IMG/VR virus record: IMGVR_UViG_3300044620_001883
Location: 128,001-192,000 of that record
Strand: one strand, 5' to 3'
DNA: 64,000 nt
Source: a virus
Lineage: Duplodnaviria; Caudoviricetes
The position numbers and the translations under genes were made by a program. Each line of letters starts with the position of its first letter. Position 1 is the first letter of the stretch. Of the stretch, positions 2,344 through 34,834 are shown piece after piece. The notes below the pieces were generated by a model. It saw only the letters and a program-made list of their open reading frames with translations. It was not told where the DNA came from and searched no databases.

Positions 2344-5049
2344 ATGTTGTCCCTGCTCGCCCCACCCATCGTCAAGTCCTCGAGTGCCCTCCCGGTTCTC
2401 GAACGGGCGGCAGGCAAGATCCAGGATGCCGTGGACCCTGCTCCGCTCGAGAAGGCCCCCGCGACGGCCCGTCCTGAATCCAAGAGGCACCGGGAGGCTT
2501 TGGTGGATGAAGCAAGGGTGCGGCACTACCAGGACCAACCTTTCAGTACATCTGCCATGCTAGGTGGTGGGCTCGGTTTGAGTGTGCCGTGGGTGCTGGC
2601 TGCCATCATGGCTCCCAAGATGTACCGGAATAATGCCGACATTGGTAGGCTGGCACAGCTCTCGGCAGCCGGTGGGCTAGTCGGGACCGGGACAGGTCTG
2701 GGTGCTGAAGCACTAGGACGCCTCTTGACCCGTGGGTTCGGTCCCAATTTCAAACCTTCGCAGTGGCACCGGGACCAGGATCCTCACCGCTGGAACAGTG
2801 CACTCCGGACTGCCCCCATCGCGGTGGCCACGCTGGGTGGTAAAGCACTGTCGACCATGTTTCGGGAGATGCACAAGGATGCCAGCAACGACCAGGATCT
2901 TCGGAGCCGTATCGCAGCTGCGTACAAGCAGGTCACAATCCCTGACCTGAAGGCCATCGAGCACGGTCAGTACCAGAAGGGTCACTTCTCCTGGAAGGGT
3001 CTCGGTATCACGATCGAGTCTGCCCCTGGTGCAGTGCGGCGTGGGGTCGATAAGGATGGGACGGAGTGGTCCGTGAAGCTCAAGAATGCCTACGGGTACA
3101 TCAAGGGCACCACCAGCGCAGAACCCGGTGACCAGATGGATGTCTTCATGGGTCCACATCCCGAGAGCGAGATCGTGTTTGTGGTGGACCAGAACAAGCA
3201 GAAGACCAAGACCTTCGATGAACACAAGTGCGTCGTAGGCTGCCGTACTGTTGCTGAAGCGAAGGAGCTGTACATCAAGAACTACTCGGAAGGCTGGACC
3301 GGCTTCCGGGACATCACACCCATGACGCTACCCCAGTTCAAGTCATGGCTAAAGAAAGGGGACATGACCAAGCCACTGGCCGGGCAGCAGTTCCAGGATT
3401 TCCACAAGCAGGCCACAAATTCGCTGGTCAACATTCTACCAAGCTCAGATATTTCCATCATGCACACTAGCCTCACACCCGCCCCCTGGACCAAGCAAGC
3501 CATCAATCTCAAGGGGGTCCTTCCTGCTCTCAAGGGCATGTTCAGCCGCACACCAGGTGCGGTCGGTGCGACTGAGGGGGCTACTGCAGCGCCGGCCGCG
3601 GAGAAGCTCCGAAGCTTCCTAGCTGGCGGAGGCAACCTGCGACCAGGGGAGTACGAGCGCGTTGCCCTGCAGCACCCGGAGCTCATGGCTGAGTTCCCTC
3701 GCATCCGTGATGCCGTGAATCTGGCTGACGTTCGGCGGATGATCGGCACTGGTCCTATTCCTGGCGCGTTTCAGGGGGGTGTTGGTAATCAGGTAGCACA
3801 GACGCTGATCGGTGGTGGAGCTGGTGCGGGGCTTGGTCTCGCTGAAAACAGTTTCACGGACATGGGACCGGACATGCAGAAGAACAACCTGATTGCCAAT
3901 ACGGCCTTAGGTCTGTTGGCAGGCAACCCAATCGCGCGGCAACGTATGCTCAAAAAGGTGTTCACGGATCCTGCTACTGGTCTCCGGAACATTGGGTACA
4001 ACCCGAAGGCCTTAATGGGTGCCAGTACAGGCCTCATCGGCAAGACATCCCTGCTGCTTGGTGGTGATAAACTGTTTGGTACTCTTGACAACCTGCGAGC
4101 CGGTACAGGCAAACTCACCAGCACCGCGACCAAGCTCGATTCCAAGATGGACAAGGCTGAGAACAGTATTGCCAAGAACTTCAAGGAGCCGTTCGAGAAG
4201 TTGGAGAATTCTTCCAAGGAGCTGGGCGGCAAGCTGATGGACTCAGGCTCTAAGTTGATTGCTGGAGGCCGCCCGTATGTTGGGGGCATTGGTGGTGCAT
4301 TCCTGGGCAATATGGTAGGCCAGTACTTCGAGGACGAGAAGCGGGTCTCTGCCGAGGAGGCCAAAAGACAGAAGCGCAATCGTATCCTGCTCACACTGCT
4401 CGGCGGCGCTGCAGGTGCAGGACTCGGATCGGCCGACCAGAACACTCTCCCGGATACGCTTCGCCGTCTCCAGGGTGGTTGGCAAACAGCAAAAGGTACG
4501 GCAGCAGATCTGTACAACAAGGTGACCAAGCAGGCCAATCTGGAGACTTCATTACCAGACGCTCTGAAACTGTTCGGCGTAAACTCCGAAGCCGCCACAC
4601 CAGATACTGTGGCGGCTCTCAAGGAACTTGCTGTACTTTCGCAAAGCTCAGATCCTAGAGCGGCTGTGCATGCAGCATGGGCTGTTCCCACAGTCGAACG
4701 TGCCGTTGCGATGCCGCTTGGCGGTGCCGCACTTGGTGGAGCCGCTGGTGGATTGATCCAGATGCTGCGCGGGCACGGTGTGCGCGATAAGAAACGTCGA
4801 CCTTCTGTTGGTGCTGGAGTTGGTTGGGGTGGGGTAGCAGGTGGGTTGCTTGGTGTCCTGGCTGCCGCCGACGCACCACGCCAGGGCTGGAATGCTTCCC
4901 CAATGGGGCGTGCCATTGGCACCGTGCCGCTATCAGATGGTTTGAGGACCTACTGGCGGATGCTGAGCGGTAACGGTGCCGACACCGCCATCGAAGATGC
5001 TTTGAACGCCGCTGCGATCAATAAATGGATACCGAAACTGGCGCCATGA
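2344..5049 (+). CDS. large putative virion internal/ejection protein with an inorganic pyrophosphatase-like (InPase) domain and Gly-zipper helices
   Basis: ITIESAPGAVRRG..W..K..YGYIKGT..GDQMDVFMG..VFVVDQ..FDEHK matches the InPase domain of polyvalent phage proteins; several GGxxGxxxG segments; three KQA motifs. Confidence 0.65.
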   Translation: MLSLLAPPIVKSSSALPVLERAAGKIQDAVDPAPLEKAPATARPESKRHREALVDEARVRHYQDQPFSTSAMLGGGLGLSVPWVLAAIMAPKMYRNNADIGRLAQLSAAGGLVGTGTGLGAEALGRLLTRGFGPNFKPSQWHRDQDPHRWNSALRTAPIAVATLGGKALSTMFREMHKDASNDQDLRSRIAAAYKQVTIPDLKAIEHGQYQKGHFSWKGLGITIESAPGAVRRGVDKDGTEWSVKLKNAYGYIKGTTSAEPGDQMDVFMGPHPESEIVFVVDQNKQKTKTFDEHKCVVGCRTVAEAKELYIKNYSEGWTGFRDITPMTLPQFKSWLKKGDMTKPLAGQQFQDFHKQATNSLVNILPSSDISIMHTSLTPAPWTKQAINLKGVLPALKGMFSRTPGAVGATEGATAAPAAEKLRSFLAGGGNLRPGEYERVALQHPELMAEFPRIRDAVNLADVRRMIGTGPIPGAFQGGVGNQVAQTLIGGGAGAGLGLAENSFTDMGPDMQKNNLIANTALGLLAGNPIARQRMLKKVFTDPATGLRNIGYNPKALMGASTGLIGKTSLLLGGDKLFGTLDNLRAGTGKLTSTATKLDSKMDKAENSIAKNFKEPFEKLENSSKELGGKLMDSGSKLIAGGRPYVGGIGGAFLGNMVGQYFEDEKRVSAEEAKRQKRNRILLTLLGGAAGAGLGSADQNTLPDTLRRLQGGWQTAKGTAADLYNKVTKQANLETSLPDALKLFGVNSEAATPDTVAALKELAVLSQSSDPRAAVHAAWAVPTVERAVAMPLGGAALGGAAGGLIQMLRGHGVRDKKRRPSVGAGVGWGGVAGGLLGVLAAADAPRQGWNASPMGRAIGTVPLSDGLRTYWRMLSGNGADTAIEDALNAAAINKWIPKLAP

Positions 5050-5735
5050 GCAAAGTCTCACACATCAAGGTCTCAACAGCTCTTCTAGGTAAGGCACTAA
5101 ATGGAGTCTCGAAGGTCTTGACCCAAACAGGTAAGACGCTCCAGCAAGGCGCTCGCTTCGGGGCAGGAGTCCCGGCAGGTGAAACCTTCGCACCTTCGAT
5201 CGGTACTGCCGCGCGTCGTGTACTGAAGCTCGGTTTTAACCCGCAAGTCAAGGGTTGGTGGAACGTACCGAAGCGGATAGCACAAGGTGCGGGCGTCTAT
5301 GGTCTGGGTGCTAGTGTTGTGCAGGGTCGTGAAGCTGTCAAGGACTTGGCCCTGAATGCCAACCAATTGCTCCCACCGCATGAGAAACTTCAACCGTTGA
5401 AACAGTACACACAGGACCTGGCCGAGTCCCCAATCTGGACCACACTCAGGACAGCCATCATGGGTCTCCCCGAAACAGTTCCAGCTGGGCAGCGTGCGCT
5501 GCTCGGCAACGCTACTTACATTGCTGGTCGGAACGGGGTGGCTGACTGGTGGAACAATCTTGGTCGCGCTCCAGCGGCAACGGGCCCAGGGACTTGGCTT
5601 CGGCACGCCTATGCACCTGCTGTAGCACCTGCTGTCCAGGGTGTCCGAAGTGTACTGCCTAATATCCCACACGCGCCACCTAGCGCCTACGGGGATCTGT
5701 TCCGCTCTGCCCAGCAAGCTGTACGGGAATGGTAG
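5046..5735 (+). CDS. putative virion internal protein with N-terminal HIKVS tag
   Basis: ATG 5046 overlaps the previous stop; Ala/Gly-rich; SHIKVSTALLGKA. Confidence 0.55.
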   Translation: MSKVSHIKVSTALLGKALNGVSKVLTQTGKTLQQGARFGAGVPAGETFAPSIGTAARRVLKLGFNPQVKGWWNVPKRIAQGAGVYGLGASVVQGREAVKDLALNANQLLPPHEKLQPLKQYTQDLAESPIWTTLRTAIMGLPETVPAGQRALLGNATYIAGRNGVADWWNNLGRAPAATGPGTWLRHAYAPAVAPAVQGVRSVLPNIPHAPPSAYGDLFRSAQQAVREW

Positions 5736-5758
5736 AGTACGATGTTGCACGCCAAACA

Positions 5759-5788
5759 TTGACCCGCTCACCATCTCTGCGTAACAGT
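5759..5788 (+). promoter_or_regulatory. sigma70-like promoter (leaderless)
   Basis: TTGACC-N18-AACAGT, ATG 7 nt downstream. Confidence 0.5.
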
Positions 5789-5795
5789 ACTCATC

Positions 5796-6131
5796 ATGGA
5801 CCTACCCCCTTCTGTTCCTTCTGCTACTGATATTGATGCGCAGCATCTTGGTTACCTGGCCGTCGCAATGACGTTCGGGGCGCTCTCGGCTATGGCGGCT
5901 CTCCTGGGATCTGAGAGCCCTCTGACACCGCGCGTCGTGATGGCCTACCTACTTTCAGGCGGCCTCGCTGCTGGTGGTGTCGTATTGGTGCTTGTGGAAC
6001 AATACGGCTTCAATTATTTTCTGTGTGGGATCGGGATCTTCGCGGGCTACAAGGCCTTCGATCTCCTGGCCATGATCAGCATGGCCGTCTCCAGCTTCGT
6101 TAACAAATTCCTCTCCAAAAAAGGCCAATGA
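5796..6131 (+). CDS. holin-like membrane protein
   Basis: 111 aa, about three hydrophobic segments, basic C-terminus KFLSKKGQ. Confidence 0.55.
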   Translation: MDLPPSVPSATDIDAQHLGYLAVAMTFGALSAMAALLGSESPLTPRVVMAYLLSGGLAAGGVVLVLVEQYGFNYFLCGIGIFAGYKAFDLLAMISMAVSSFVNKFLSKKGQ

Positions 6132-6733
6132 GCATTCTCGATCGCATGTCAAACCGCCGGCACTCCCTTGCGTCACTGCTTCACGCCACTCTGATATTTG
6201 TGGCACTGGGCGCGGCCATTCTGTTCTTCTACGAACAGCAGCGTTCAGAACATCTCGCGGCGCAGTTCAGAACTGCTGTGCGTGGGGCAGGCGCGGGACA
6301 GTGGTATTGGGACATTGAAAAAAACATCCTCAGATGGGATGACCGCATGTTCGAGTTGTTCCATTGCAGCAAGGCAGGCTGGGAGAACGTGGACGGCATT
6401 TGGGAATGGCGCGGATCTGCGACAGACGAGCCGGCCGCCAAGTTTGTCTCGACTCTGTACAAGGAGGATGTGCCGATGGTTATGGCAGCGTTACAGCGGG
6501 CGATCATGACGCGAAGCTCTTACCAGGCGGTGTTCCGGGTGGTGGGCACGGACGGCATCGTGTACTTCCTGAGAGCAGGTGGAGCGGTCTACGGGGGCGG
6601 CAGATACATGACCGGATTGTGTATACGGTTCTCTGCCGCCGACAAGCCCGGTGAGCTGGATATCAGCCACTGCTTTGAAGCGTGGCAGAACCACATGGCG
6701 CACGCGACTGAACTGGCTGGGTCGGCGCCCTGA
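6128..6733 (+). CDS. membrane-anchored stand-alone PAS (PAS_3-like) domain protein
   Basis: N-terminal TM, then GAGQWYWDIEKNILRWDDRMFELF...LYKED...YQAVFRVVGTDGIVYFLRAGG; no kinase or cyclase domain. Confidence 0.7.
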   Translation: MSILDRMSNRRHSLASLLHATLIFVALGAAILFFYEQQRSEHLAAQFRTAVRGAGAGQWYWDIEKNILRWDDRMFELFHCSKAGWENVDGIWEWRGSATDEPAAKFVSTLYKEDVPMVMAALQRAIMTRSSYQAVFRVVGTDGIVYFLRAGGAVYGGGRYMTGLCIRFSAADKPGELDISHCFEAWQNHMAHATELAGSAP

Positions 6734-6740
6734 ATTCTGG

Positions 6741-6769
6741 TTGCGCACACAGGGAGGCATGGTGACCCT
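6741..6769 (+). promoter_or_regulatory. sigma70-like promoter (leaderless)
   Basis: TTGCGC-N17-GACCCT, ATG 6777 7 nt downstream. Confidence 0.45.
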
Positions 6770-6776
6770 ATCCAAC

Positions 6777-7049
6777 ATGGAAGCCAGCCAATCACCCACA
6801 TCTCCTGCGATGCACCGCATACCAGTCGGTGGGGCTGAACCTTTCCACTGGGCCCATGGTGGGTGCTGGTGCTTTCCGCTACAGCATTACTGTGAGGAAG
6901 CGCAGGCCACCTACATGCTCCACAACGCGCAGGATTGTCGGGAGGCATTTGAACGGCAGGGGCTCGATGATCCAACCAGACCCTGGGTTGCTGTCCTGGG
7001 TTATGTGGGAACTCCGGTTGACGTACCCAGCACAGTAATGGCAACGTAG
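6777..7049 (+). CDS. hypothetical protein
   Basis: 3' part of the 6651-7049 frame; start chosen from the promoter position. Confidence 0.5.
   Translation: MEASQSPTSPAMHRIPVGGAEPFHWAHGGCWCFPLQHYCEEAQATYMLHNAQDCREAFERQGLDDPTRPWVAVLGYVGTPVDVPSTVMAT
7018..7047 (+). promoter_or_regulatory. sigma70-like promoter (leaderless)
   Basis: TTGACG-N18-CAACGT, ATG 8 nt downstream. Confidence 0.45.
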
Positions 7050-7055
7050 TCGCAT

Positions 7056-8123
7056 ATGAGTCTAGCCCCCTGGTTCCACAAACAAGCTGGCGTTGGTGAG
7101 AGTGCCTTCAAGGCCCCCACTGCGGCGGCAGCCCCAGCGGCTTCAAATCCAGCGACGGCGCCGACGACACCAGCGGCGACACCGGGTGCAAGTAAACCCC
7201 CAGCAGCGACTCCTTTGGGTTCGGCTCCACCTCCGGCACCACAGGCTCCTTTGGGTGCGTTGCCCCCTTTACCCCCTCCCCCATTAGGTGCTGGTGCTCC
7301 ACTTCCTGACCCGTGGGGCGGTGGAACTCCAACCAGCACACCACCGCCGGCGGCACCTGTGGGTTCACTCCCGCCGTCAACCCTGGGAGCTGGAGACTCT
7401 GGAGGTACACCGTCACCTTCATATCCTGCTGCTTTGGGCGACCCAACCAAGACCACAATGCCGCCACCAGCCCCCGCCTTGGGGGGTGACACCTCATCTG
7501 TCCCGCCTGCCGCATCTCCTCCGGCTCCGGGTGGAACACCTCCACCCTCCCAGGTTCCTTCTGGTCACGAGTTTTCCACGATACCGGGCGCCCCAGGACC
7601 GGACGCCAAAACGGCATTTCCAGCAGACAGCCCGGAAGGGATCGCGGAACGAACTCGGCCTGGTGTCCTGCAGGATCGCGGCCTCGTCGCAGGTCCAACA
7701 GCTCCCCAGCAGATGGACCAACAACAGATGGACAACGCTGTTGGGAATTTGACAGCCGGAACTGGCTTCAACGGCAGTGCTACTTCCATGAAACCCGAGG
7801 ACGTGATGGCGCGCGCTACTGCCATCAATGACAAGTACCGGAAAGACAACCCAACGTTTGCAGCAGCCAACCCACATCCGGACGACCCGCGCAACAAGGT
7901 GGCCCACATCCAGGTCAGCACCCATATTCTCAAACGTGCGGCAGCAGTACCTTCCGTGGCTGCCGTGTCCTCCACCAAGCCTCCCGTGGGGCCGGTGATC
8001 CTGAACCCGAAGTTCCTGAGGGCTCTGCCCAAGCAGGCTCCAGCCAAACCCCCGGCGAAGCCAGCCAAGGATCCTGAACCCAAACCGGTTCCTGGTGCGG
8101 TCAAGAAAGCAGCTTGGTATTGA
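7056..8123 (+). CDS. Pro/Ala-rich disordered putative virion internal protein
   Basis: Low complexity; WFHKQAG, HIQVSTHILKRAAA and VKKAAWY motifs. Confidence 0.6.
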   Translation: MSLAPWFHKQAGVGESAFKAPTAAAAPAASNPATAPTTPAATPGASKPPAATPLGSAPPPAPQAPLGALPPLPPPPLGAGAPLPDPWGGGTPTSTPPPAAPVGSLPPSTLGAGDSGGTPSPSYPAALGDPTKTTMPPPAPALGGDTSSVPPAASPPAPGGTPPPSQVPSGHEFSTIPGAPGPDAKTAFPADSPEGIAERTRPGVLQDRGLVAGPTAPQQMDQQQMDNAVGNLTAGTGFNGSATSMKPEDVMARATAINDKYRKDNPTFAAANPHPDDPRNKVAHIQVSTHILKRAAAVPSVAAVSSTKPPVGPVILNPKFLRALPKQAPAKPPAKPAKDPEPKPVPGAVKKAAWY

Positions 8124-8153: not shown

Positions 8154-8474
8154 ATGCCTGACGCCTCCAAACCTCCCAGCTGGATTGCCATGATCGGTGG
8201 CACGGTCATGGGGTTGTTAACCGGCAGCCTGACCATGTACACGTGGTTGGAGCACCGTATCGAGAGTAGGGTCGAAGCAAAGGTCATGATCGAAGTCAGG
8301 ATCTCGGCTATTGAGGCTGCCCTGAAGACCAACAAGGATGCAGCCTGGCTCGCGGATGAGAACCTCGTGAAGCGACTCGATATCCAGCAGGAGCGAATTA
8401 CACAACTGGTCAGCAAGATCGATGGACTGCACGTGACCGTCACACCAAGCGCAAGTTCAACTACACCCCCATGA
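8154..8474 (+). CDS. single-TM coiled-coil membrane protein (holin-like candidate)
   Basis: WIAMIGGTVMGLLTGSLTMY TM followed by a heptad-rich helix. Confidence 0.5.
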   Translation: MPDASKPPSWIAMIGGTVMGLLTGSLTMYTWLEHRIESRVEAKVMIEVRISAIEAALKTNKDAAWLADENLVKRLDIQQERITQLVSKIDGLHVTVTPSASSTTPP

Positions 8475-9088
8475 TGTACAAACAGGCAGGACCAGTACAG
8501 TTGCTTGGCAAGTTGCTTGGGCGTGCAGCGCCTGCCGCGAAGGGGTTGGGGTCCTTCGAACGCTACCCTGCCTTGATGGCTGCGCGCCGCAAGACGATCG
8601 TGATCCCCAATGCTCGCGCCAGCTCGTTTCCAGGTCCTGACACTTGGGGCCAGTACCGTCCCAAGGATGACCTACTGCTAGTGCGCGGTGGGCTTTCGCC
8701 GACTGTAGCACGACAATCACTGCGGCACGAGCTTACCCACATGGCCCAAATCAAGGCACCACACACCTGGCTGGACAGAACTGTGCAGGCCGGCATATCT
8801 CAGCCGGGTAATAGCTTCAAGTCAGGCCTACGCAGCATCCTGGCTGAGTTCGGTGCCCGCACTGGAGAGACCAAAGGCCTGATGGCTCCTGTCAGAGGAG
8901 CATTGAAGTTGTGGGAGACCGCACCGTCCTATGCACGAGACTTCAAACGGTTGGGTGCCCGCGCGGCGGCCCTGCCGTACCAACTCCTGACTGCAGCCCC
9001 TATTGTCGGCGGACTGGCAACGGCAGGTGGTTTGGGTCTAAAGCTCAAGAGCCTGACGGACCAGCTCAACCAACCTAAGACACGATGA
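8471..9088 (+). CDS. putative Zn metallopeptidase (HExxH)
   Basis: LLLVRGG...SLRHELTHMAQ; N-terminal MYKQAG. Confidence 0.55.
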   Translation: MMYKQAGPVQLLGKLLGRAAPAAKGLGSFERYPALMAARRKTIVIPNARASSFPGPDTWGQYRPKDDLLLVRGGLSPTVARQSLRHELTHMAQIKAPHTWLDRTVQAGISQPGNSFKSGLRSILAEFGARTGETKGLMAPVRGALKLWETAPSYARDFKRLGARAAALPYQLLTAAPIVGGLATAGGLGLKLKSLTDQLNQPKTR

Positions 9089-9129: not shown

Positions 9130-9158
9130 TTGCAGAGTGTCCCGCTTGTTGCGACAGT
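9130..9158 (+). promoter_or_regulatory. sigma70-like promoter (leaderless)
   Basis: TTGCAG-N17-GACAGT, ATG 9164 5 nt downstream. Confidence 0.5.
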
Positions 9159-9163
9159 TGAGG

Positions 9164-9781
9164 ATGGCAACGCCGTTTCAACTTCTCTCTCACGTCAAAC
9201 GCGCAGGCGCGACCCCTCCCCCACCGGAAGGTAAACAGTACGACCTGCCCGTTCCGATCCCTCCAACATCCAAGACGGACAAAACCGTAGCAGCCTTGCC
9301 GCCTGGTAAGCAGTACGCGTTGCCGGTTCCGCCAACCCCGCAAGCCCCTACGCTTGCATCACCCATCCTGACACGCTCAGGACAACCAGCTCCGGCAGGT
9401 TGGGCACCTCCCAAACAGGAACTCCCACCCGTGCCGGTTCCTGCGGAGGTGCGGCAGGGTCTACCATCATTCGGGCAGTGGTTACAGTCGCGCGCGGTCG
9501 ATCTGTCAACAATGTTGGTCCCGTACCAAGCGCAGATCAATCAGGTCTTCGGACACAAGCAAGCTTCCCACATCCGCGTCAGCTCGTACTTGCTCAAGCG
9601 CGCGACCCTCGGAGCAGCAAAGTCCGTAGCTGGACAGCAGCCGGGACTCGGAGGGCATTTGAAGCAAGCGCCTAAGATGTTCCAACCACCCGCTGCACCG
9701 ACCGCTGTGCAGCCGACCCAGCCAACAGCGCCTGACTTCAAGATCAAAGCTCCTGCCGGGATCGCGGCAGCACGAGGCTAA
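9164..9781 (+). CDS. Pro-rich putative virion internal protein
   Basis: Internal duplication GKQYxLPVP; HVKRAG and HKQASHIRVSSYLLKRA motifs. Confidence 0.55.
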   Translation: MATPFQLLSHVKRAGATPPPPEGKQYDLPVPIPPTSKTDKTVAALPPGKQYALPVPPTPQAPTLASPILTRSGQPAPAGWAPPKQELPPVPVPAEVRQGLPSFGQWLQSRAVDLSTMLVPYQAQINQVFGHKQASHIRVSSYLLKRATLGAAKSVAGQQPGLGGHLKQAPKMFQPPAAPTAVQPTQPTAPDFKIKAPAGIAAARG

Positions 9782-21142: not shown

Positions 21143-21247
21143 GCAGAAACACCCGCGACGAAGTGCTTGGCACTCCGTGGGACTATTTCGGGAGAATCCC
21201 TCCCACCGACGCTCTCCCGGTACATCAGGAGGGCAACCCATAAACAC

Positions 21248-21562
21248 ATGTATATGCACAAAACATTGGTCAGCGTAGGGACCCTTACGGCGTCCCTACT
21301 GACACTGGGCTTCCTGATCGGCGCGGTCAGGTTGCTCCTCATCTGGTGGGCCGTTGCCGCCAGCATTGGCCACCGTGCCGCCGCAATCCTGTTGGTCCCT
21401 GTGGGACTGATGGTTCTCGTTGGCGGCGCGATCGCGCAAATCGCGAAGCTCTGTTGGGAAGAGCTTCGCGACATCAACTGCGGCCAGGAGGCCGCGGAGC
21501 AGCGGGAGCTGCAAAACAGCAGGGATGACATTGAGTTGGCCCAAGGGAAGGAGGAGCTATGA
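21248..21562 (+). CDS. small 2-TM membrane protein
   Basis: Two hydrophobic segments. Confidence 0.55.
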   Translation: MYMHKTLVSVGTLTASLLTLGFLIGAVRLLLIWWAVAASIGHRAAAILLVPVGLMVLVGGAIAQIAKLCWEELRDINCGQEAAEQRELQNSRDDIELAQGKEEL

Positions 21563-22125
21563 AGTTCCCCTTTTCGGATACTCCGACGTTCCGGAGTTGG
21601 GCGGGCACCCTCATCGACGGGAACTGCCTTGAGGTGACGGAGGTCTTGTCGATTTGGTCGTTTCGCGAGATCACAGATCAGCGAGAGATCCCCGGTATCG
21701 ACACGACCGGGCAGGTGACCCATGCGGTCTATTACCAAGCTCCTGGGACTTCCAGGATACTGATCGCAGTGTTTGCGATGTTGGAGGACCGTGGTGAGTA
21801 CCGCTACATCATGGGTGCTGGCGTAAACCCATCAACTGGGGAATGGCGCGGGAACCACGATCTCAGCGCTGGTGAGATCGCTAGCCTGATCCGGCAGGGG
21901 CATCTATATGCCTGTGAAAAGGTCACCGCGGAGGCGGCGGCCGAGCGGCGTCAACCCACTGCCCAAGAGCCCAACATCCAGATCCAGTTCCAGGGCTACA
22001 CCTTGGATCTGTTCATGACGGATAACGGTTCCTTGGGGCTGACGATCGAGAGGTCGCCAGCCCATGAAGATAATCCCAGCGTGGATGTTTTCATCACGCA
22101 GGACCTCAAGGTCACGCATGTGTAA
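21559..22125 (+). CDS. hypothetical protein
   Basis: 188 aa, ATGA overlap. Confidence 0.65.
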   Translation: MKFPFSDTPTFRSWAGTLIDGNCLEVTEVLSIWSFREITDQREIPGIDTTGQVTHAVYYQAPGTSRILIAVFAMLEDRGEYRYIMGAGVNPSTGEWRGNHDLSAGEIASLIRQGHLYACEKVTAEAAAERRQPTAQEPNIQIQFQGYTLDLFMTDNGSLGLTIERSPAHEDNPSVDVFITQDLKVTHV

Positions 22126-22130
22126 GGTAA

Positions 22131-22166
22131 CCACCCGTCGTCCTTCGGGGCGGCGGGTGGCTTTTC
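22131..22166 (+). terminator. rho-independent terminator with C(UUCG)G loop
   Basis: CCACCCGTCGTCC-TTCG-GGGCGGCGGGTGG followed by CTTTTC. Confidence 0.85.
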
Positions 22167-22222
22167 GTTAGCTATGACGTCGCTTGACCTGTACAGGCTT
22201 TCGTGGTCAAATGTGTGTTGTC

Positions 22223-22618
22223 ATGAAGTACATCACCACACTTATCGTCCTCATTGTCTCCGCGTTGTTCCTCAACAACTGCACTACCACCCAAAGGGAT
22301 GCGTCCAAAAAGTACGCCTCCCAAATCAGCCGGGAAGTGGCCAGGTCGGCCGGTATCGCCGCCGCCGCGGTCGCAACCAACCTGATTCAACTCAAGCTCA
22401 ATGAGGCAACAGCCAAGCTGAGCGAGCAACGTGCAACTCTTGGCCCCAAGAATCCCGGTAGTGTCGTCACATTGACCAAGCTTGGCTTCCAGGAGATTGC
22501 GGTCGTGGAGGCCGAGAGGCTCCTGCGGCGCGCCGAGGTTGAGCTGGCAAAGCTCAAAGATGTTGATGCCCTGCCTGCACCTGCTGAAGCTCTTGCTCCA
22601 GTCGTGGTTACACCCTGA
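22223..22618 (+). CDS. putative lipoprotein (spanin-like candidate)
   Basis: MKYITTLIVLIVSALFLNNC signal with Cys, followed by helical coiled coil. Confidence 0.55.
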   Translation: MKYITTLIVLIVSALFLNNCTTTQRDASKKYASQISREVARSAGIAAAAVATNLIQLKLNEATAKLSEQRATLGPKNPGSVVTLTKLGFQEIAVVEAERLLRRAEVELAKLKDVDALPAPAEALAPVVVTP

Positions 22619-22649
22619 GTCATTTTAACCCCACCACCCCGCGCACACC

Positions 22650-23075
22650 ATGCCTCCAGATCTCAAAGCCTTCCTGATCAACCTCTTCTCCAAAAACACC
22701 GGCTCGATTGCTCGTGCTGTGGCTGGCATCGTAGCCGCCGGCATTGCTGCTTTGGCTGTCAAGCTGTTCGGTTACACGCTGTCCGGTGAGGAATACCTCA
22801 AGCTCACCGGCATGGTCGCGGGTGGTGCCATGTGGTTCCTGGGCGAAGTCGTCAAGTACATCGAGAACAAGAACATCACAGCGCTGCAGGCAGCCGTGCA
22901 AACTATCGCGCCGGAAGTTCTTACCGACGGTCACATTGGTCCCGTCACTGTGGCGGCCGTGGAGCGCGCAGCTGAAACGCTCAGCGCCTTCAAGGCAGCA
23001 GGTGCCGGGGGCACGGTTGATGAACGAGCCACCGCCGCTACCGTGGTGGTAGCAATGAAACCACCTGCGTTGTGA
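22650..23075 (+). CDS. holin-like 2-TM membrane protein
   Basis: Two hydrophobic helices; next to the lipoprotein gene. Confidence 0.5.
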   Translation: MPPDLKAFLINLFSKNTGSIARAVAGIVAAGIAALAVKLFGYTLSGEEYLKLTGMVAGGAMWFLGEVVKYIENKNITALQAAVQTIAPEVLTDGHIGPVTVAAVERAAETLSAFKAAGAGGTVDERATAATVVVAMKPPAL

Positions 23076-28073: not shown

Positions 28074-28934
28074 ATGCCCACTACCTCTACATTCCCAGAC
28101 CTCCTGCCCGGCCAAGCTTCCATGGCAGATCCTACAGCTGTCCGGTACCTCCAGACGGCGCTTAACAGCCAAGGCTATCCGGTGCCCGTCAACGGCAAGT
28201 ACGACAAAGCCACCATCGCCGCTGTCTTCAACTTCCAGGGTGTCCGGCTAGACCGTAAAGGTCGTCACCTCAAAGCTGACGGCTGGGTTGGTCCTGCCAC
28301 TTGGTGGGCCATTCAGAATCCGTCAGGCGCGTCCCAGAAGTCCAACCTCGAGGGCGACACCCGCAAGGGGTTGTCTGCTGAACGCCGCGCAATCATCAAA
28401 GCTTTCCTGAAGGACCACACAGCCGGGGTGCGGGAGATCCCTGATGGTGCCAACTACGGTGACGGTGTGACCCGCTACCTGACTGTCATCGGTCCTGCGT
28501 ACTGGTGCTGCTACGCTGTCAGCACATGGCACAAAGATGCAGTGGGCACCTGGCCCTTCGGGGAACGCTTCGGGTTAGTGGCCGGGATCTGGAATGAAGC
28601 CAAAGAGCGCGGACGCGCGATCCTGAAGGAGGACACCAGCACGGCTGTCCCGGGCGATGCGTTCGTGATGCTGTACCGGAATGCCAAAGGCAGACTCACA
28701 GGCCTGGGTCACATCGGGCTTGTCCTGACTGCCAGCCAAGACGGGGAGTCCTTCAATACCGGCGAAGGTAATGCCGGCAATCGCGTGAAGATCAGCCGGC
28801 GTGAGACTGACCAGGACACGCTGGTCGGTTACATTGACTTCTTCGGGGACCGGGCTGCTGTCCTTCCCAAGTTCGAACGTGGGCTGTTGTCCAAGTCGGA
28901 AGCGGCGGATTCGTCACTAGCTGGCACACGCTGA
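28074..28934 (+). CDS. endolysin: peptidoglycan-binding domain plus CHAP amidase
   Basis: LQTALN..GYP..VNGKYDKATIAAVFNFQ...ADGWVGPATW; YWCCYAV (Cys), GHIGLV (His), TGEGN. Confidence 0.85.
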   Translation: MPTTSTFPDLLPGQASMADPTAVRYLQTALNSQGYPVPVNGKYDKATIAAVFNFQGVRLDRKGRHLKADGWVGPATWWAIQNPSGASQKSNLEGDTRKGLSAERRAIIKAFLKDHTAGVREIPDGANYGDGVTRYLTVIGPAYWCCYAVSTWHKDAVGTWPFGERFGLVAGIWNEAKERGRAILKEDTSTAVPGDAFVMLYRNAKGRLTGLGHIGLVLTASQDGESFNTGEGNAGNRVKISRRETDQDTLVGYIDFFGDRAAVLPKFERGLLSKSEAADSSLAGTR

Positions 28935-29536: not shown

Positions 29537-29817
29537 ACGCAGATAACACAGATCGCATCTTGCAAGACCTCAAGCAAACCATCGACAAGTTACCACCGAC
29601 CGCAATTGGCGTTGTGCTGGAAACCTGGCGCGTGCGAATTGACGATATTCGAAAACAACTAAAGTTTACAGGCAGATCACTAACAGACGTAACGTGCCCA
29701 GCTGCGCGTGAGCTGATGACGCTGGAAATGGCCGTACGTCAAATCGAGGCGGCCTGTGCTGTTGAGCGCGGGGATGGACTCGATGCCATCCGTATCCTTT
29801 TGAACCCCACCCCATGA
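29533..29817 (+). CDS. hypothetical protein
   Basis: 94 aa, GTGA overlap. Confidence 0.55.
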   Translation: MNADNTDRILQDLKQTIDKLPPTAIGVVLETWRVRIDDIRKQLKFTGRSLTDVTCPAARELMTLEMAVRQIEAACAVERGDGLDAIRILLNPTP

Positions 29818-30443
29818 GCACCACCCGTCGCGAGAAAGCCCGACGACTCAAGAACGCAGAGGGTGTGATCATCTGCAGCTGTGGCTGTGGTCAGATTCCA
29901 AAGCCACCACGTCAGACTTGGTTCAGCCAGGCCTGCGTGGATGGTTGGCGGGAGAAGAATGATCCGGGGTACATCCGCCAGCAGATGCTGAAGCGCGACA
30001 AGGGGATCTGCGCTCTGTGTGGTGTCGACTGCGTCAAGATCCAGAAGACAGTACAGCGGCTGCAACACCTGCTGCGCTGCAGCCCTCCAGATCACGGTCA
30101 GCGCAAGTTCCGGGAAGGTCACAGTTACAACGGGCAGTTTCTGCGCAGCAAGTACGACAGGTGCCTGGCAATCTGGCAACGGTGGCGGCACAAGCGTATT
30201 ACAGCTGCCAGGAACCGACTGGAGCGTATCAGGGCTCAGGGTTGGAACCTGGACCGGAAGACACAATGGGATGCGGATCACATCCTACCCGTCATCGAGG
30301 GTGGGGGTCTGTGTGGTCTTGTCTCGATGCAGACACTGTGCGTACCTTGTCATAAGGAGAAAACCAAACAGCATGCAAAAGACCGGGCGCAAAGAAGGCG
30401 AGAGAGTAGTGGGTGTTTACCAGATCAAGTGCCTGGTAACTAG
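29814..30443 (+). CDS. HNH endonuclease-family protein
   Basis: RDKGICALCG...WDADHILPVIEGGG...TLCVPCH. Confidence 0.85.
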   Translation: MSTTRREKARRLKNAEGVIICSCGCGQIPKPPRQTWFSQACVDGWREKNDPGYIRQQMLKRDKGICALCGVDCVKIQKTVQRLQHLLRCSPPDHGQRKFREGHSYNGQFLRSKYDRCLAIWQRWRHKRITAARNRLERIRAQGWNLDRKTQWDADHILPVIEGGGLCGLVSMQTLCVPCHKEKTKQHAKDRAQRRRESSGCLPDQVPGN

Positions 30444-31182
30444 CCATGTCTATGTGGGCAGCTCTGTGCACTGCCTGCGGCGGTTTAAGTATCACAAGAC
30501 GCAGCTCCGAGGCGGTACGCACACCAACAGACACCTACAAGCGGCGTGGTGTAAGTACGGCGAAGCGCAGTTTGAGTTCATGATTATTAGACAGCTCACG
30601 GCTCCTTTGGGACCTGAGGTGTTGCTAACCTGTGAACGAGCCCTCTGTGTGAAGCTTAAAGCCCTTGATCCGTGCCACGGTTACAACCAACAGCAACCCG
30701 GTGCGGTGTACTGCCGTAGCACCGCTGAAGAGACCAAGCGCAAAATAGGCGACGCCAACCGAGGTAAGAAGAGAACACCAGAACAGGTTAAGCGCGCGCG
30801 TGATGCATTTTTACTGGCTACCGCGGGCAGGCCAGGTCCGAATAAAGGACGCAAGTTTGGACCCGATGTGCGACAGAAGATACGTCAAGCCCGTCTAGGC
30901 CGTCCGTCCTACACACGCAGTGCGGCGACGCTGCAAAAGCAGTCGTTAGTTTTGAAGAGCTTTTACACAACACCCAAGGGGCAGATTCTACGCGCCGCGC
31001 GCGGGAGGCCAGCGGAGCCGTGCACCAACTGTAGCTGTATCGTTAAGACACGCCGACGCGGTTTATGCGGAGCATGTAACGAGTACAAGAGGCGCACAGG
31101 GAACGCTCGACCTCCTGGAGGTTTTCCACAGGGTGGAGGCAGGCATGGGCGAAAAACCCTGGCAAAGCCGCACGCTTTGTAA
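30373..31182 (+). mobile_element. free-standing GIY-YIG homing endonuclease with NUMOD3-like repeats
   Basis: GVYQIKCLVTSHVYVGSS..RRFKYH..L..GTHTNRHLQAAWCKYG; TKRKIGDANRGKK and NKGRKFGPDVRQKI repeats. Confidence 0.88.
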
Positions 31183-31843: not shown

Positions 31844-34834
31844 ATGCGCGTCAAAGCCATCCAGTATGCGGTCAATTCGGTGCTACCTCCAGAGCTGCGC
31901 GACTATCAACGCCCTCTGGACGGTAAAGGGATCGAGCGTCTGATGCACCAGGTGGCGGTAAGCTACCCGGACAAATATGCGGAGGTGCTCCGTCACATCG
32001 GTGACCTGGGACGCAACGCCGCGTACTGGCAAGGTGAGACCATGGGACTCGATGATCTGCGCGACGTCATCGACACGCCCGGCTATTTGCGCCAGATGGA
32101 CACGGAGGTCGACGCAGCCACACGAGGCCTCAAGGATCCGCAGGCGATCCGGGAAGCCCGGGAGGGTGTCTGGCATAAATGGGCGTCCAAGCTGGAGCGC
32201 GACACCATGACGGCCGCGCTGGTGAAGAACAACGCGATCGGTGAATCTGTGGCATCCGGAGCACGCGGCAAGCCTGTGCAGGCCCGCGCTATGCTTTCCA
32301 CGCCGGCGATCTTCGAAGACAGCCAGGGTCGCACCATCCCGCTCTTCGCCCGCAGTTCTTACTCCCAGGGTGTGTCTCCTGGTGCCTGGCTTGCTGGGAC
32401 CTACGGCGCCCGCAAGGCAGTCGTGAGTACAAAGGTCTCGACTGCCAAAGGTGGGTTCTTGGCGAAAATGCTCACACAGGTTGCTGCTCCTCTGATCGTG
32501 ACTGAGCCAGACTGCGGAACCACCAACGGCATCGATCTTTCCAAAGACGCGCCCGACCTGCGCAACCGCTTCCTGGCCGCCCCTGCCGGTGGGCTTGACG
32601 GTGGGTCTCTTCTGGACCGCAAGGGCATCGCGCAGATCAAAAACAAGTTCAAGGGCGACACCATCCTGGTGCGATCTGCTCTGACCTGCCAGGCCCCTCG
32701 TGGTGTTTGCGCCAAGTGTATCGGGGCAGACCCGCGCGGACAGCTCCACCGTGTTGGCTACGCCGCAGGGATCACAGCCTCGAACGCGCTCGGAGAACCT
32801 GCTTGTTTGCATGGTAGCACCCTGGTGCGCATGGCAGATGGAAGTGTCAGACCGATCACCGCTATCCGAGTTGGTGACATGGTGCTAGGCGCGGATATAC
32901 AAGGGGTGCTGCGTCCAACAAGGGTCATGAATACGTTCGTGAACGGTATGCGTCACTGCTTTAGAACGGTTGTGCGTAAGGGCTTCGGTGCCAAGTCTGA
33001 TCGTATCGAGTTAATTTCCACAGCAGAACATAAAGTTCTAAGCTTCAAAGGCAAACGTCACAAGAAGGCGTATCCAACTATCGCAAGCATAGAAATGCCA
33101 GCAGAAGTAAACCCCCAACACAGCGTGTACATGGCAGCGGGTTGCCCTGATTTCGTAGGCGTTGTCGAGCCGTGGGCCATGCTGCTCGGGGCACTTACAG
33201 GTGACGGTTGTTACACCGGAGGAAAAGGCTCTGATGGCAAAGGCATCGGTTTTTCCTGCTACGATCAGCTTCTCACTGAAGACATGCAGAGAGCGCTACA
33301 TGCACACGGATTGAAGCTGAGCGGCAGCGAAGCAAGCGAGTTTCGTGTAAACATGCAAGACCAATATAGCGCGTTCGAATACATCGATGGTAAATTAGTA
33401 CGTAACAAGCTGCGTGCGGTGCTTATCAAAGAAGGTATGTGGGGGCAGTACAGTGGTGAAAAAACACCTCCAAGAAACATTCAGAGGTGGGACAACGCAT
33501 CCGTAGCAGCTTACATCGGTGGGTTGCTGGCCACAGATGGGTGGATCACCACAACCGGAAGTGTTGCTGGGTTTAGCAGCAACTCCCAGCTGCTGCTGCA
33601 GACTGTCAAGGACCTGTGTGAGCTGCGTTTTGGTATCTACGGATCGCGCATAATCCCGAAGTACAAAAGAAAGAAAGGGACCCAACAGTTTTACGCACCA
33701 ACGTTTGAGTTCACGATCTGCGGCGCAGAGAACATGCGAAAGTTGTTCGCGCATATACCTGTGCCAGGTTGCAAACAAGCAAGGCTGCAAAAGAAAGCAC
33801 AGGAACCAACTAAAACACGCATGTGCGCGGGGCGTTTCACCGTGCTTGAGCAAGTGTACTACGGGTTTGAGATGACTTACGACATTGAGGTGGACAACGA
33901 CACCCACCTCTTTGCGCTCGCCAATGGTCTGGTTGTTTCAAACACACAGGCGGCCCTGCGGGAAAAGCACACATCAGGCGCAGCGTCTAAGAAGGCCTCG
34001 TACTCGGGGTTGGATTGGCTGCAGCGGTTCGTGCAGGTGCCAGACAGTTTCCCAGATCGCGCCCCCGTGGCTGAGCAAGATGGGACCGTGACGGTCATGG
34101 AGGCCCCGCAAGGTGGTCACTATGTACACATCGGAGATCAGGAGCATTACGTACCGGCCAACCTGGAAGTAACCGTCAAGACAGGCGAGCGTGTTGAAGC
34201 CGGGCAACCTCTGTCGGAAGGGGTCGTGCGCCCTGATGACGTGGTGCGGTTGCGTGGCGTTGGGGAAGGTCGCCGATACTACAGCGACCGCCTTGGGCAG
34301 ATGTTTGCCGACTCAGGCTTCCGCGCGGACCCGCGCAACGTCGAGCTGATTGCGCGTGCGGCGGTCGATCATGTGCAGATCGACGATCCTGAGGATCTGC
34401 CAGACGGTGTGCTCCCTGACGACACAGTACAGTTCGGGGAGTTCATGCGCAATTACGAGCCCGCCGAGGGATCCCAAATACGGGATATCAAGGAGGCCGC
34501 CGGCCAGTACCTACAGCAGCCCGCCCTCCACTACACACCCGGCACCAAACTCACAGGCAGCATGGTCGAGCGTCTAGGCAAGGCTGGCATCTCGAAGATC
34601 ATGACCAACGAGAAAGCGCCGCCTTTCCACCCCGCAATGGTGCGCCTTCAAACGTCCTCGTTTTCAAATCCGGATTGGCTGGCCAGCTTGTCGACCTCTT
34701 ACCTCGGCAAACAGCTCGCCACGGGAGCGGCGCGCGGGCAGGACACCAACATCGAACACAACATCCACTTTGCACCCCGGCTTGCTGTGGGTGTAGACTT
34801 TGGCAAGAACATCGAAACCACCGGAGAATTTTGA
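31844..34834 (+). CDS. rpoC: RNA polymerase beta' C-terminal fragment with intein
   Basis: SGARG, bridge helix YGARKAVVSTKVSTAKGGFL, DCGT, VRSALTC..GVCAKC, trigger loop ALGEPA/TQAALREKH, jaw domain. Confidence 0.92.
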   Translation: MRVKAIQYAVNSVLPPELRDYQRPLDGKGIERLMHQVAVSYPDKYAEVLRHIGDLGRNAAYWQGETMGLDDLRDVIDTPGYLRQMDTEVDAATRGLKDPQAIREAREGVWHKWASKLERDTMTAALVKNNAIGESVASGARGKPVQARAMLSTPAIFEDSQGRTIPLFARSSYSQGVSPGAWLAGTYGARKAVVSTKVSTAKGGFLAKMLTQVAAPLIVTEPDCGTTNGIDLSKDAPDLRNRFLAAPAGGLDGGSLLDRKGIAQIKNKFKGDTILVRSALTCQAPRGVCAKCIGADPRGQLHRVGYAAGITASNALGEPACLHGSTLVRMADGSVRPITAIRVGDMVLGADIQGVLRPTRVMNTFVNGMRHCFRTVVRKGFGAKSDRIELISTAEHKVLSFKGKRHKKAYPTIASIEMPAEVNPQHSVYMAAGCPDFVGVVEPWAMLLGALTGDGCYTGGKGSDGKGIGFSCYDQLLTEDMQRALHAHGLKLSGSEASEFRVNMQDQYSAFEYIDGKLVRNKLRAVLIKEGMWGQYSGEKTPPRNIQRWDNASVAAYIGGLLATDGWITTTGSVAGFSSNSQLLLQTVKDLCELRFGIYGSRIIPKYKRKKGTQQFYAPTFEFTICGAENMRKLFAHIPVPGCKQARLQKKAQEPTKTRMCAGRFTVLEQVYYGFEMTYDIEVDNDTHLFALANGLVVSNTQAALREKHTSGAASKKASYSGLDWLQRFVQVPDSFPDRAPVAEQDGTVTVMEAPQGGHYVHIGDQEHYVPANLEVTVKTGERVEAGQPLSEGVVRPDDVVRLRGVGEGRRYYSDRLGQMFADSGFRADPRNVELIARAAVDHVQIDDPEDLPDGVLPDDTVQFGEFMRNYEPAEGSQIRDIKEAAGQYLQQPALHYTPGTKLTGSMVERLGKAGISKIMTNEKAPPFHPAMVRLQTSSFSNPDWLASLSTSYLGKQLATGAARGQDTNIEHNIHFAPRLAVGVDFGKNIETTGEF
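32804..33943 (+). mobile_element. intein with LAGLIDADG homing endonuclease (380 aa)
   Basis: Starts CLHGSTLV, ends TYDIEVDNDTHLFALANGLVVSN followed by Thr; LGALTGDG and GLLATDGW blocks. Confidence 0.92.

Follow-up and report, generated by a model that had tools for sequence, protein, structure and literature searches.

The moment at which a holin triggers determines the burst size of a phage and its fitness. Only a handful of holin regulators are known to us (lambda S107, P1 LydB, T4 RI/RIII, ICP1 ArrA and phiKZ gp143), and to our knowledge only lysis inhibition of the T4 type has been tied to an external cue. The placing of a regulator gene beside its own holin has precedent, as seen in phages P2, phiKZ and P1. 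In the annotation of P2, the gene lysA 'affects timing of lysis' and is located two genes downstream of Y, after the endolysin gene K. In phiKZ, gp143 is encoded immediately downstream of the holin gp142; it is soluble, is located in the cytoplasm and has a class III holin as its target, advances triggering by ~10 min and can block a truncated form of the holin, and the same source cites LydB of P1 as the essential antiholin of LydA (PMC12894885). Partners that are tethered to the membrane and have a predicted extracytoplasmic soluble domain occur in T4, where RI binds the large periplasmic domain of the holin T (PMC11413866), and in ICP1, where the partner of TeaA is ArrA (PMC7182436). The nearest phage-encoded PAS sensor in the literature is VqmA of vibriophage VP882, a DNA-binding PAS-domain quorum-sensing receptor (PMC8284805).

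The DNA considered here (the window) is a stretch of 64,000 nucleotides, bases 128001-192000 of a 200,255-bp IMG/VR virus record that is estimated to be 98% complete. Most of its large ORFs lie on the + strand, and among its genes there are several with matches to beta-type subunits of phage RNA polymerase, to a GIY-YIG homing endonuclease and to endolysin families. Because of these matches and the length of the record, the source is read as an uncultured jumbo phage. The GIY-YIG homing endonuclease (phrog_314, E 4e-16) and a Cys-rich HNH-like ORF are found together at 29814-31182 and are closely followed by an RNA-polymerase beta-type gene (31844-34834).

Two adjoining genes on the + strand form the pair under study. 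The first (5796..6131) encodes a holin-family protein of 111 aa with three TM helices, an acidic N-tail and a basic C-tail, and the second (6128..6733) a protein of 201 aa that consists of a short, basic N-tail, a TM helix, a linker helix, a PAS core and a variable C-terminal tail (TM-PAS protein). As described in an earlier, sequence-only reading of this DNA, the TGA stop codon of the first gene overlaps the ATG of the second within an ATGA (6128..6131), an arrangement that suggests translational coupling of both genes. By sequence comparison both ORFs are real beyond chance, since they have homologue clusters in metagenomes (12 and 8 for the two ORFs) and recur as a pair in six other loci. 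The same reading had given the pair its own promoter, and this was not borne out: a scan of positions 4800-7400 for the sigma-70 consensus found no promoter, although the phage encodes its own RNA polymerase subunits, whose promoters such a scan cannot judge. The 60-nt spacer before the pair contains only TTGACC-17 nt-TAACAG, a weak sigma-70 match. None of the GenBank phages resembled the pair region at the DNA or protein level; DNA and tblastn searches of these phages gave no match to either protein of the pair, to two distant relatives of the holin or to the PAS protein of another contig with the pair (L041), and no cultured-phage example of the pair was found among them.

The 111-aa protein has three hydrophobic segments by hydropathy, and the AlphaFold2 model obtained with a 25-sequence alignment (mean pLDDT 76.6) places helices at residues 15-37, 45-70 and 74-110. 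The net charges of its tails (-3 at the N-terminus, +3 at the C-terminus) suggest an N-out/C-in orientation, the pattern of class I holins. Motifs conserved in its family are PLTPR in loop 1, YGF(N/S)YF in loop 2 and AGYKAxD in TM3, and the family is present in a single copy in the 200-kb genome. General features of holins are found in its length of 111 aa, its three helices and its C-tail charge of +3; an adjacent endolysin gene is found in three other contigs with the pair (L039-L041) but not in the window. When scored against PF04550 (Phage_holin_3_2), the protein reached 19.2 bits (E 1.7e-3; 19.1 bits in the genome search), below the Pfam gathering cut-off of 25 bits. No family member shown attained the cut-off, the best score among the individually listed members being 22.9 bits (P0069), and a weak match to PF04550 was seen in nine of ten close homologues.

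A search of 1.84 billion representative proteins with an HMM of the close family returned 65 proteins, all but one of them 84-185 aa long. Six of the 65 matched PF04550, and three PHROG families annotated 'holin' were matched by 33, 10 and 10 representatives; two members of the holin family also weakly matched the Pfam family of LydA. The PHROG family with 33 matches, phrog_6384, had no match in the phage's own genome and at loose thresholds matched 12 of 14 control genomes, and was therefore left out as a membership test. A metagenomic protein of 2093 aa (P0075) showed matches to the holin-family profile in five separate stretches, the best at 976-1048. No holin-PAS fusion was found in the unrestricted HMM search or in a search of proteins of 325-2000 aa, which is weak evidence.

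The archetype of PF04550 is gpY of phage P2 (143.6 bits), which is annotated as the essential holin of that phage. An hhalign comparison of the 65-sequence family profile (A3) with gpY gave a probability of 86.8% (E 4.3e-6) over 68 columns, including the P-[LI]-T-P-R of loop 1 and the A-G-Y of helix 3, and a further alignment (A4) gave 59%. This signal does not reflect mere membrane-protein composition, since the controls run with A3, the three-helix holin S of lambda and the multi-TM LysA of P2, gave 0.9% and 0.7%. Profile comparison, then, relates the 111-aa protein distantly to the gpY holin lineage, of which it is not a member by the Pfam criterion. The earlier description of the upstream gene as holin-like is supported by this specific profile similarity, which makes its product a holin-family protein. 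The likeness to the Y/K/lysA system of P2 comprises the PLTPR loop, the AGY motif and the three TM helices of the holin, and also lysA, a non-enzymatic membrane protein in the cassette that is annotated for lysis timing. The partner, in contrast, is a TM-PAS protein (an hhalign comparison of a TM-PAS alignment, A5, with LysA gave a probability of 0.7%, no similarity), and the genes are ordered endolysin-holin-partner in the relatives and are unlinked in the window.

The 201-aa protein has one strongly hydrophobic segment near its N-terminus (about residues 14-35, by hydropathy). In the AlphaFold2 model (mean pLDDT 83.6) a continuous helix extends from residue 3 to 54, the TM segment running on as a linker helix, and is followed by a five-stranded PAS core (residues 55-167) and a poorly predicted tail with a weakly predicted helix at 180-198. 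In the PDB, Foldseek found 120 chains at E<=1e-3, of which those ranked highest are all PAS, LOV and FixL-type domains with probability 1.0; the modelled structure can be assigned to the PAS fold with confidence. The score against PAS_3 (PF08447) was 20.7 bits, under the cut-off of 25.6, and homologues that align with it over the full length (L040, L041 and L047) scored 45.2, 46.6 and 47.2 bits, above it; a precomputed PF08447 match is also recorded for three close homologues. No further domain was found beside the PAS domain by AlphaFold2, Pfam or Foldseek, so the protein corresponds to what had been claimed for it, a membrane-anchored PAS protein without an output domain: one N-terminal TM helix, a PAS domain at 55-167 and nothing further. 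A protein of this kind was not described in any paper returned by full-text literature searches that combined PAS domain with holin, antiholin, lysis timing or lysis cassette. With VqmA it would share the role of a phage-encoded PAS domain that decides when to kill the host, and it differs in being anchored in the membrane, in having no output domain and in being encoded beside a holin.

In the ESM Atlas, the structural neighbours of residues 1-175 are the last TM helix and PAS_3 domain of MASE1 and DUF4118 sensor kinases. The likeness to sensor kinases (MASE1, DUF4118 and PAS_3 histidine kinases) lies in the continuous TM helix, the linker helix and the PAS_3 core; the differences are the single TM helix, the lack of a kinase, GGDEF or other output, and the phage context. 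Cellular PAS_3 domains are 24-33% identical to the TM-PAS protein. Its own family comprises twelve homologue clusters in metagenomes (49-78% identity), and the TM-PAS proteins of L039-L041 are 27-28% identical to it over the full length. Three residues around or within the TM helix (R11, L22 and E36) are invariant across both clades of TM-PAS proteins, and a Trp-rich hairpin at about residues 86-104 is an addition of the jumbo-phage clade. The proteins matched no PHROG family. Alignments inspected by eye showed neither the LOV Cys motif nor, in the helices that align with the FixL region, a FixL-type His, and the second clade does not keep Cys165, so no cofactor can be named for the protein; nor was a conserved cofactor-binding residue seen in the family alignments.

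Scans of IMG/VR with PAS alignments returned only the three contigs already found. Metagenome PAS matches at 23-33% identity (L004-L034) were rejected as family members, the 26 loci examined being large cellular sensor proteins or frameshifted fragments. Small stand-alone PAS proteins from uncultured Caudovirales and Cellulophaga phages are present in BFVD, and for this reason the theme of stand-alone PAS proteins in phages may be wider.

Seven loci with the pair were read, one of them in the window. Two are metagenome contigs (L002 and L003) that are syntenic with the window, including the giant protein that carries an InPase; three (L039, L040 and L041) are IMG/VR contigs that belong to another phage lineage, of roughly 87 kb; and one (L047) is a contig in the bin of an 'uncultured proteobacterium' MAG. 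The two genes overlap by 4 nt in the window, L002, L003, L039 and L040 and by 8 nt in L041, and are separated by a 6-nt gap in L047. Five further co-occurrences of the pair can be inferred, as the longest contigs given for homologues of the one gene and of the other are identical in length. The pair recurs in a second phage lineage, since neither of two compared markers is shared: the RNA-polymerase subunit of the window phage had no match in the L039-L041 contigs (43-75 kb, at 50-86% estimated completeness), and the AAA ATPase of that lineage is absent from the window phage. In L047 the pair is directly followed by a gene (904-1983) for a secreted zinc metalloprotease of the astacin/matrixin type (HExxHxxGxxH), which scores just below the Pfam cut-offs.

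A survey of gene neighbourhoods had been proposed as a check of the sequence-only reading, and among the loci read the decisive ones are L039-L041. Directly upstream of the holin-like gene is an Amidase_2 gene in L039 and L040 (36.4 and 33.8 bits, cut-off 26) and a Peptidase_M15_4/VanY gene in L041 (54.5 bits, cut-off 25). Judged by these domain matches, the pair is placed directly downstream of two unrelated types of endolysin, and in the L039-L041 lineage it stands where a classic lysis cassette has its holin and accessory gene. Upstream of the M15 endolysin of L041 (4602-5380) are genes for a 154-aa protein with a TM helix and a Gln-rich coiled coil and for a 72-aa secreted, Cys-rich peptide. 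These may be spanin-type genes, which would give a five-gene lysis cassette ending in the holin and the TM-PAS protein.

The best explanation, with a probability of about 0.58, is that the pair is a lysis-control module made up of a holin of the gpY lineage and a holin-associated PAS regulator of lysis. The product of 5796-6131 would be a three-helix holin of class I type from the lineage of P2 gpY. Late in infection it would build up in the inner membrane and then open holes, allowing a soluble endolysin (probably the product of 28074-28934) to reach the cell wall. The product of 6128-6733 would be translated together with it, in a fixed proportion maintained by translational coupling, and from its membrane tether would associate with the holin and shift the time of triggering. 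Contact might be made through the conserved TM helix (R11, L22, E36), through the conserved holin loops, or through both. Whether the holin is restrained or set free would depend on the PAS domain, through its ligand, redox or dimerisation state. The analysis shows the two genes with their overlap, the folds, the remote relationship to holins and, in other phages, a conserved linkage to endolysin genes; we infer the interaction of the two proteins, the direction of the effect, the sensing of a signal and the topology.

For the topology, the charges flanking the TM segment were compared in 19 members of the TM-PAS family. Charges range from +1 to +3 on the N-flank and from -2 to +2 over the 15 residues that follow the TM segment, and 16 of the 19 members have the more positive value on the N-flank. 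On account of these charges, the protein is probably oriented N-in/C-out, with a periplasmic PAS domain. The case for a cytoplasmic PAS domain is that PAS_3 domains are usually cytoplasmic, and that the ESM Atlas matches correspond to a last TM helix followed by a cytoplasmic PAS domain. The holin-like protein has short loops, so that a PAS domain in the periplasm would find hardly any surface of it there to bind.

Such a topology bears comparison with T/RI of T4 (PMC11413866) and TeaA/ArrA of ICP1 (PMC7182436), with which the pair would share a membrane-tethered partner with a predicted extracytoplasmic soluble domain, as well as the idea of a lysis time that responds to a signal. The pair differs from T/RI in the short loops of the holin and in the PAS domain of the partner. 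The partner does not qualify as an RI-type antiholin, having a PAS fold (by Foldseek) and a holin without a periplasmic domain; only the N-terminal tether is analogous. The parallel with T4 lysis inhibition that had been drawn for this locus can be retained as a functional one only, the holin not being of the T type with a periplasmic domain and the PAS partner not being RI-like. With gp142/gp143 of phiKZ and LydA/LydB of P1 the pair shares a holin-specific regulator that is encoded beside the holin. It differs from phiKZ, where gp143 is soluble, cytoplasmic and directed at a class III holin, and the source consulted (PMC12894885) does not speak of a PAS domain for either gp143 or LydB.

In the direction of the effect we lean towards inhibition, though acceleration is possible. 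A fuller version of the lysis-control reading, which is tentative and should be regarded as doubtful in its entirety, is that of a PAS-domain antiholin: a tethered sensor of a small molecule, of redox or energy state or of a periplasmic cue, which by direct contact with a P2-Y-like holin makes lysis conditional, and which forms with it a two-gene cassette mobile between unrelated phage lineages. The earlier proposal of a ligand-sensing, antiholin-like lysis switch fares accordingly in part: the holin-family gene and the endolysin-linked cassettes elsewhere speak for it, and the antiholin action and the ligand are offered here only as conjecture.

It is unlikely that the TM-PAS protein is instead a positive partner, a co-holin or accelerator that brings about timely hole formation. 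Strict co-occurrence and translational coupling would suit an obligate partner, and the phiKZ regulator encoded just downstream of its holin does advance triggering, by ~10 min (PMC12894885). However, the sequence gives no indication of the direction of the effect, and distant members of the holin family occur without a known PAS partner (the neighbourhoods read being those of the seven pair loci).

The lysis-control reading also has to account for the position of the pair in the window, where it is not adjacent to an endolysin gene. The probable endolysin (28074..28934, + strand) is unlinked to the pair, 22 kb downstream; it matches PG_binding_1 at 33.5 bits, above the cut-off, and CHAP at 24.2 bits, just below it, has endolysin PHROG matches, and shows no TM segment or export signal. 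The pair itself lies between genes for probable virion-packaged or ejected proteins and is preceded by the gene of the giant InPase polyvalent protein. Its gene content gives this region the look of a block of late genes for virion proteins, the pair being embedded among probable capsid-targeted proteins. Just downstream of the PAS gene is a small Trp/Cys/His-rich ORF (6759-7049) that is without a family (weak phrog_2864 match, E 0.009); it is kept in L002 (1657-1971) and is missing at that place in L003. The products of the flanking genes 5025-5735, 7056-8123 and 9137-9781 share a HI[QKR]VS..L.K[RQ]A tag, as seen in their translations.

This setting, together with the resemblance of the TM-PAS protein to the TM-PAS parts of bacterial sensor kinases, would fit a non-lytic role of the pair in the jumbo phage, whether in superinfection exclusion, membrane depolarisation or host signalling, or as a moron-like sensor taken from a host sensor kinase. 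Also counted against a lytic role are the scores of the window proteins, which fall below the Pfam cut-offs for PF04550 and PAS_3. A non-lytic role is nevertheless improbable, as the two-gene unit is embedded in endolysin cassettes of another lineage and the holin homology is specific (gpY compared with the controls). Holin genes that are unlinked to the endolysin gene are, moreover, known, as with lydAB relative to lyz in P1.

Going by predicted TM segments, other small multi-TM proteins of the window, such as those of 21167-21562 and 22650-23075, could be the main holin instead. A cluster of small membrane-protein genes occupies 21167-23075 (+ strand) and may represent further lysis or envelope genes of the window phage. 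The product of 21167-21562 (131 aa) is multi-TM by eye, with about three hydrophobic stretches; a 144-aa ORF contains a coiled coil and, from an internal start, a signal like that of a lipoprotein (MKYITT...FLNNC); and a protein of 141 aa with two TM segments shows a weak match to PG_binding_3.

It is very improbable that the TM-PAS protein is an i-spanin-like component of envelope disruption, with an N-in anchor and a periplasmic domain that acts on the outer membrane and not on timing, for although its position after the holin (compare the lambda order S-R-Rz), its type-II-like charge pattern and the length of 155-205 aa resemble Rz-type i-spanins, its soluble part is a globular PAS domain and not a coiled coil, no lipobox ORF is embedded in or adjacent to its gene, and separate genes for a TM helix plus coiled coil are present upstream of the endolysin in L041 and, with an i-spanin-like product, at 8154-8474 in the window; as an Rz-type i-spanin proper it is ruled out by the PAS fold and the lack of a lipobox partner. 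The product of 8154-8474 has 106 aa, with an N-terminal TM helix and then a predicted coiled coil. The stop codon of this gene overlaps (ATGA) the start of a 205-aa gene (8471-9088), and no lipobox partner was found near it.

If the pair is a lysis-control module in which a PAS domain is hard-wired to a holin, then some phages would couple their lysis clock to a chemical or physiological signal. The two genes would form a compact system for ligand-gated lysis that is testable in E. coli. Should the PAS protein prove to be an antiholin, it would represent lysis inhibition built on the most common sensor fold of bacteria.
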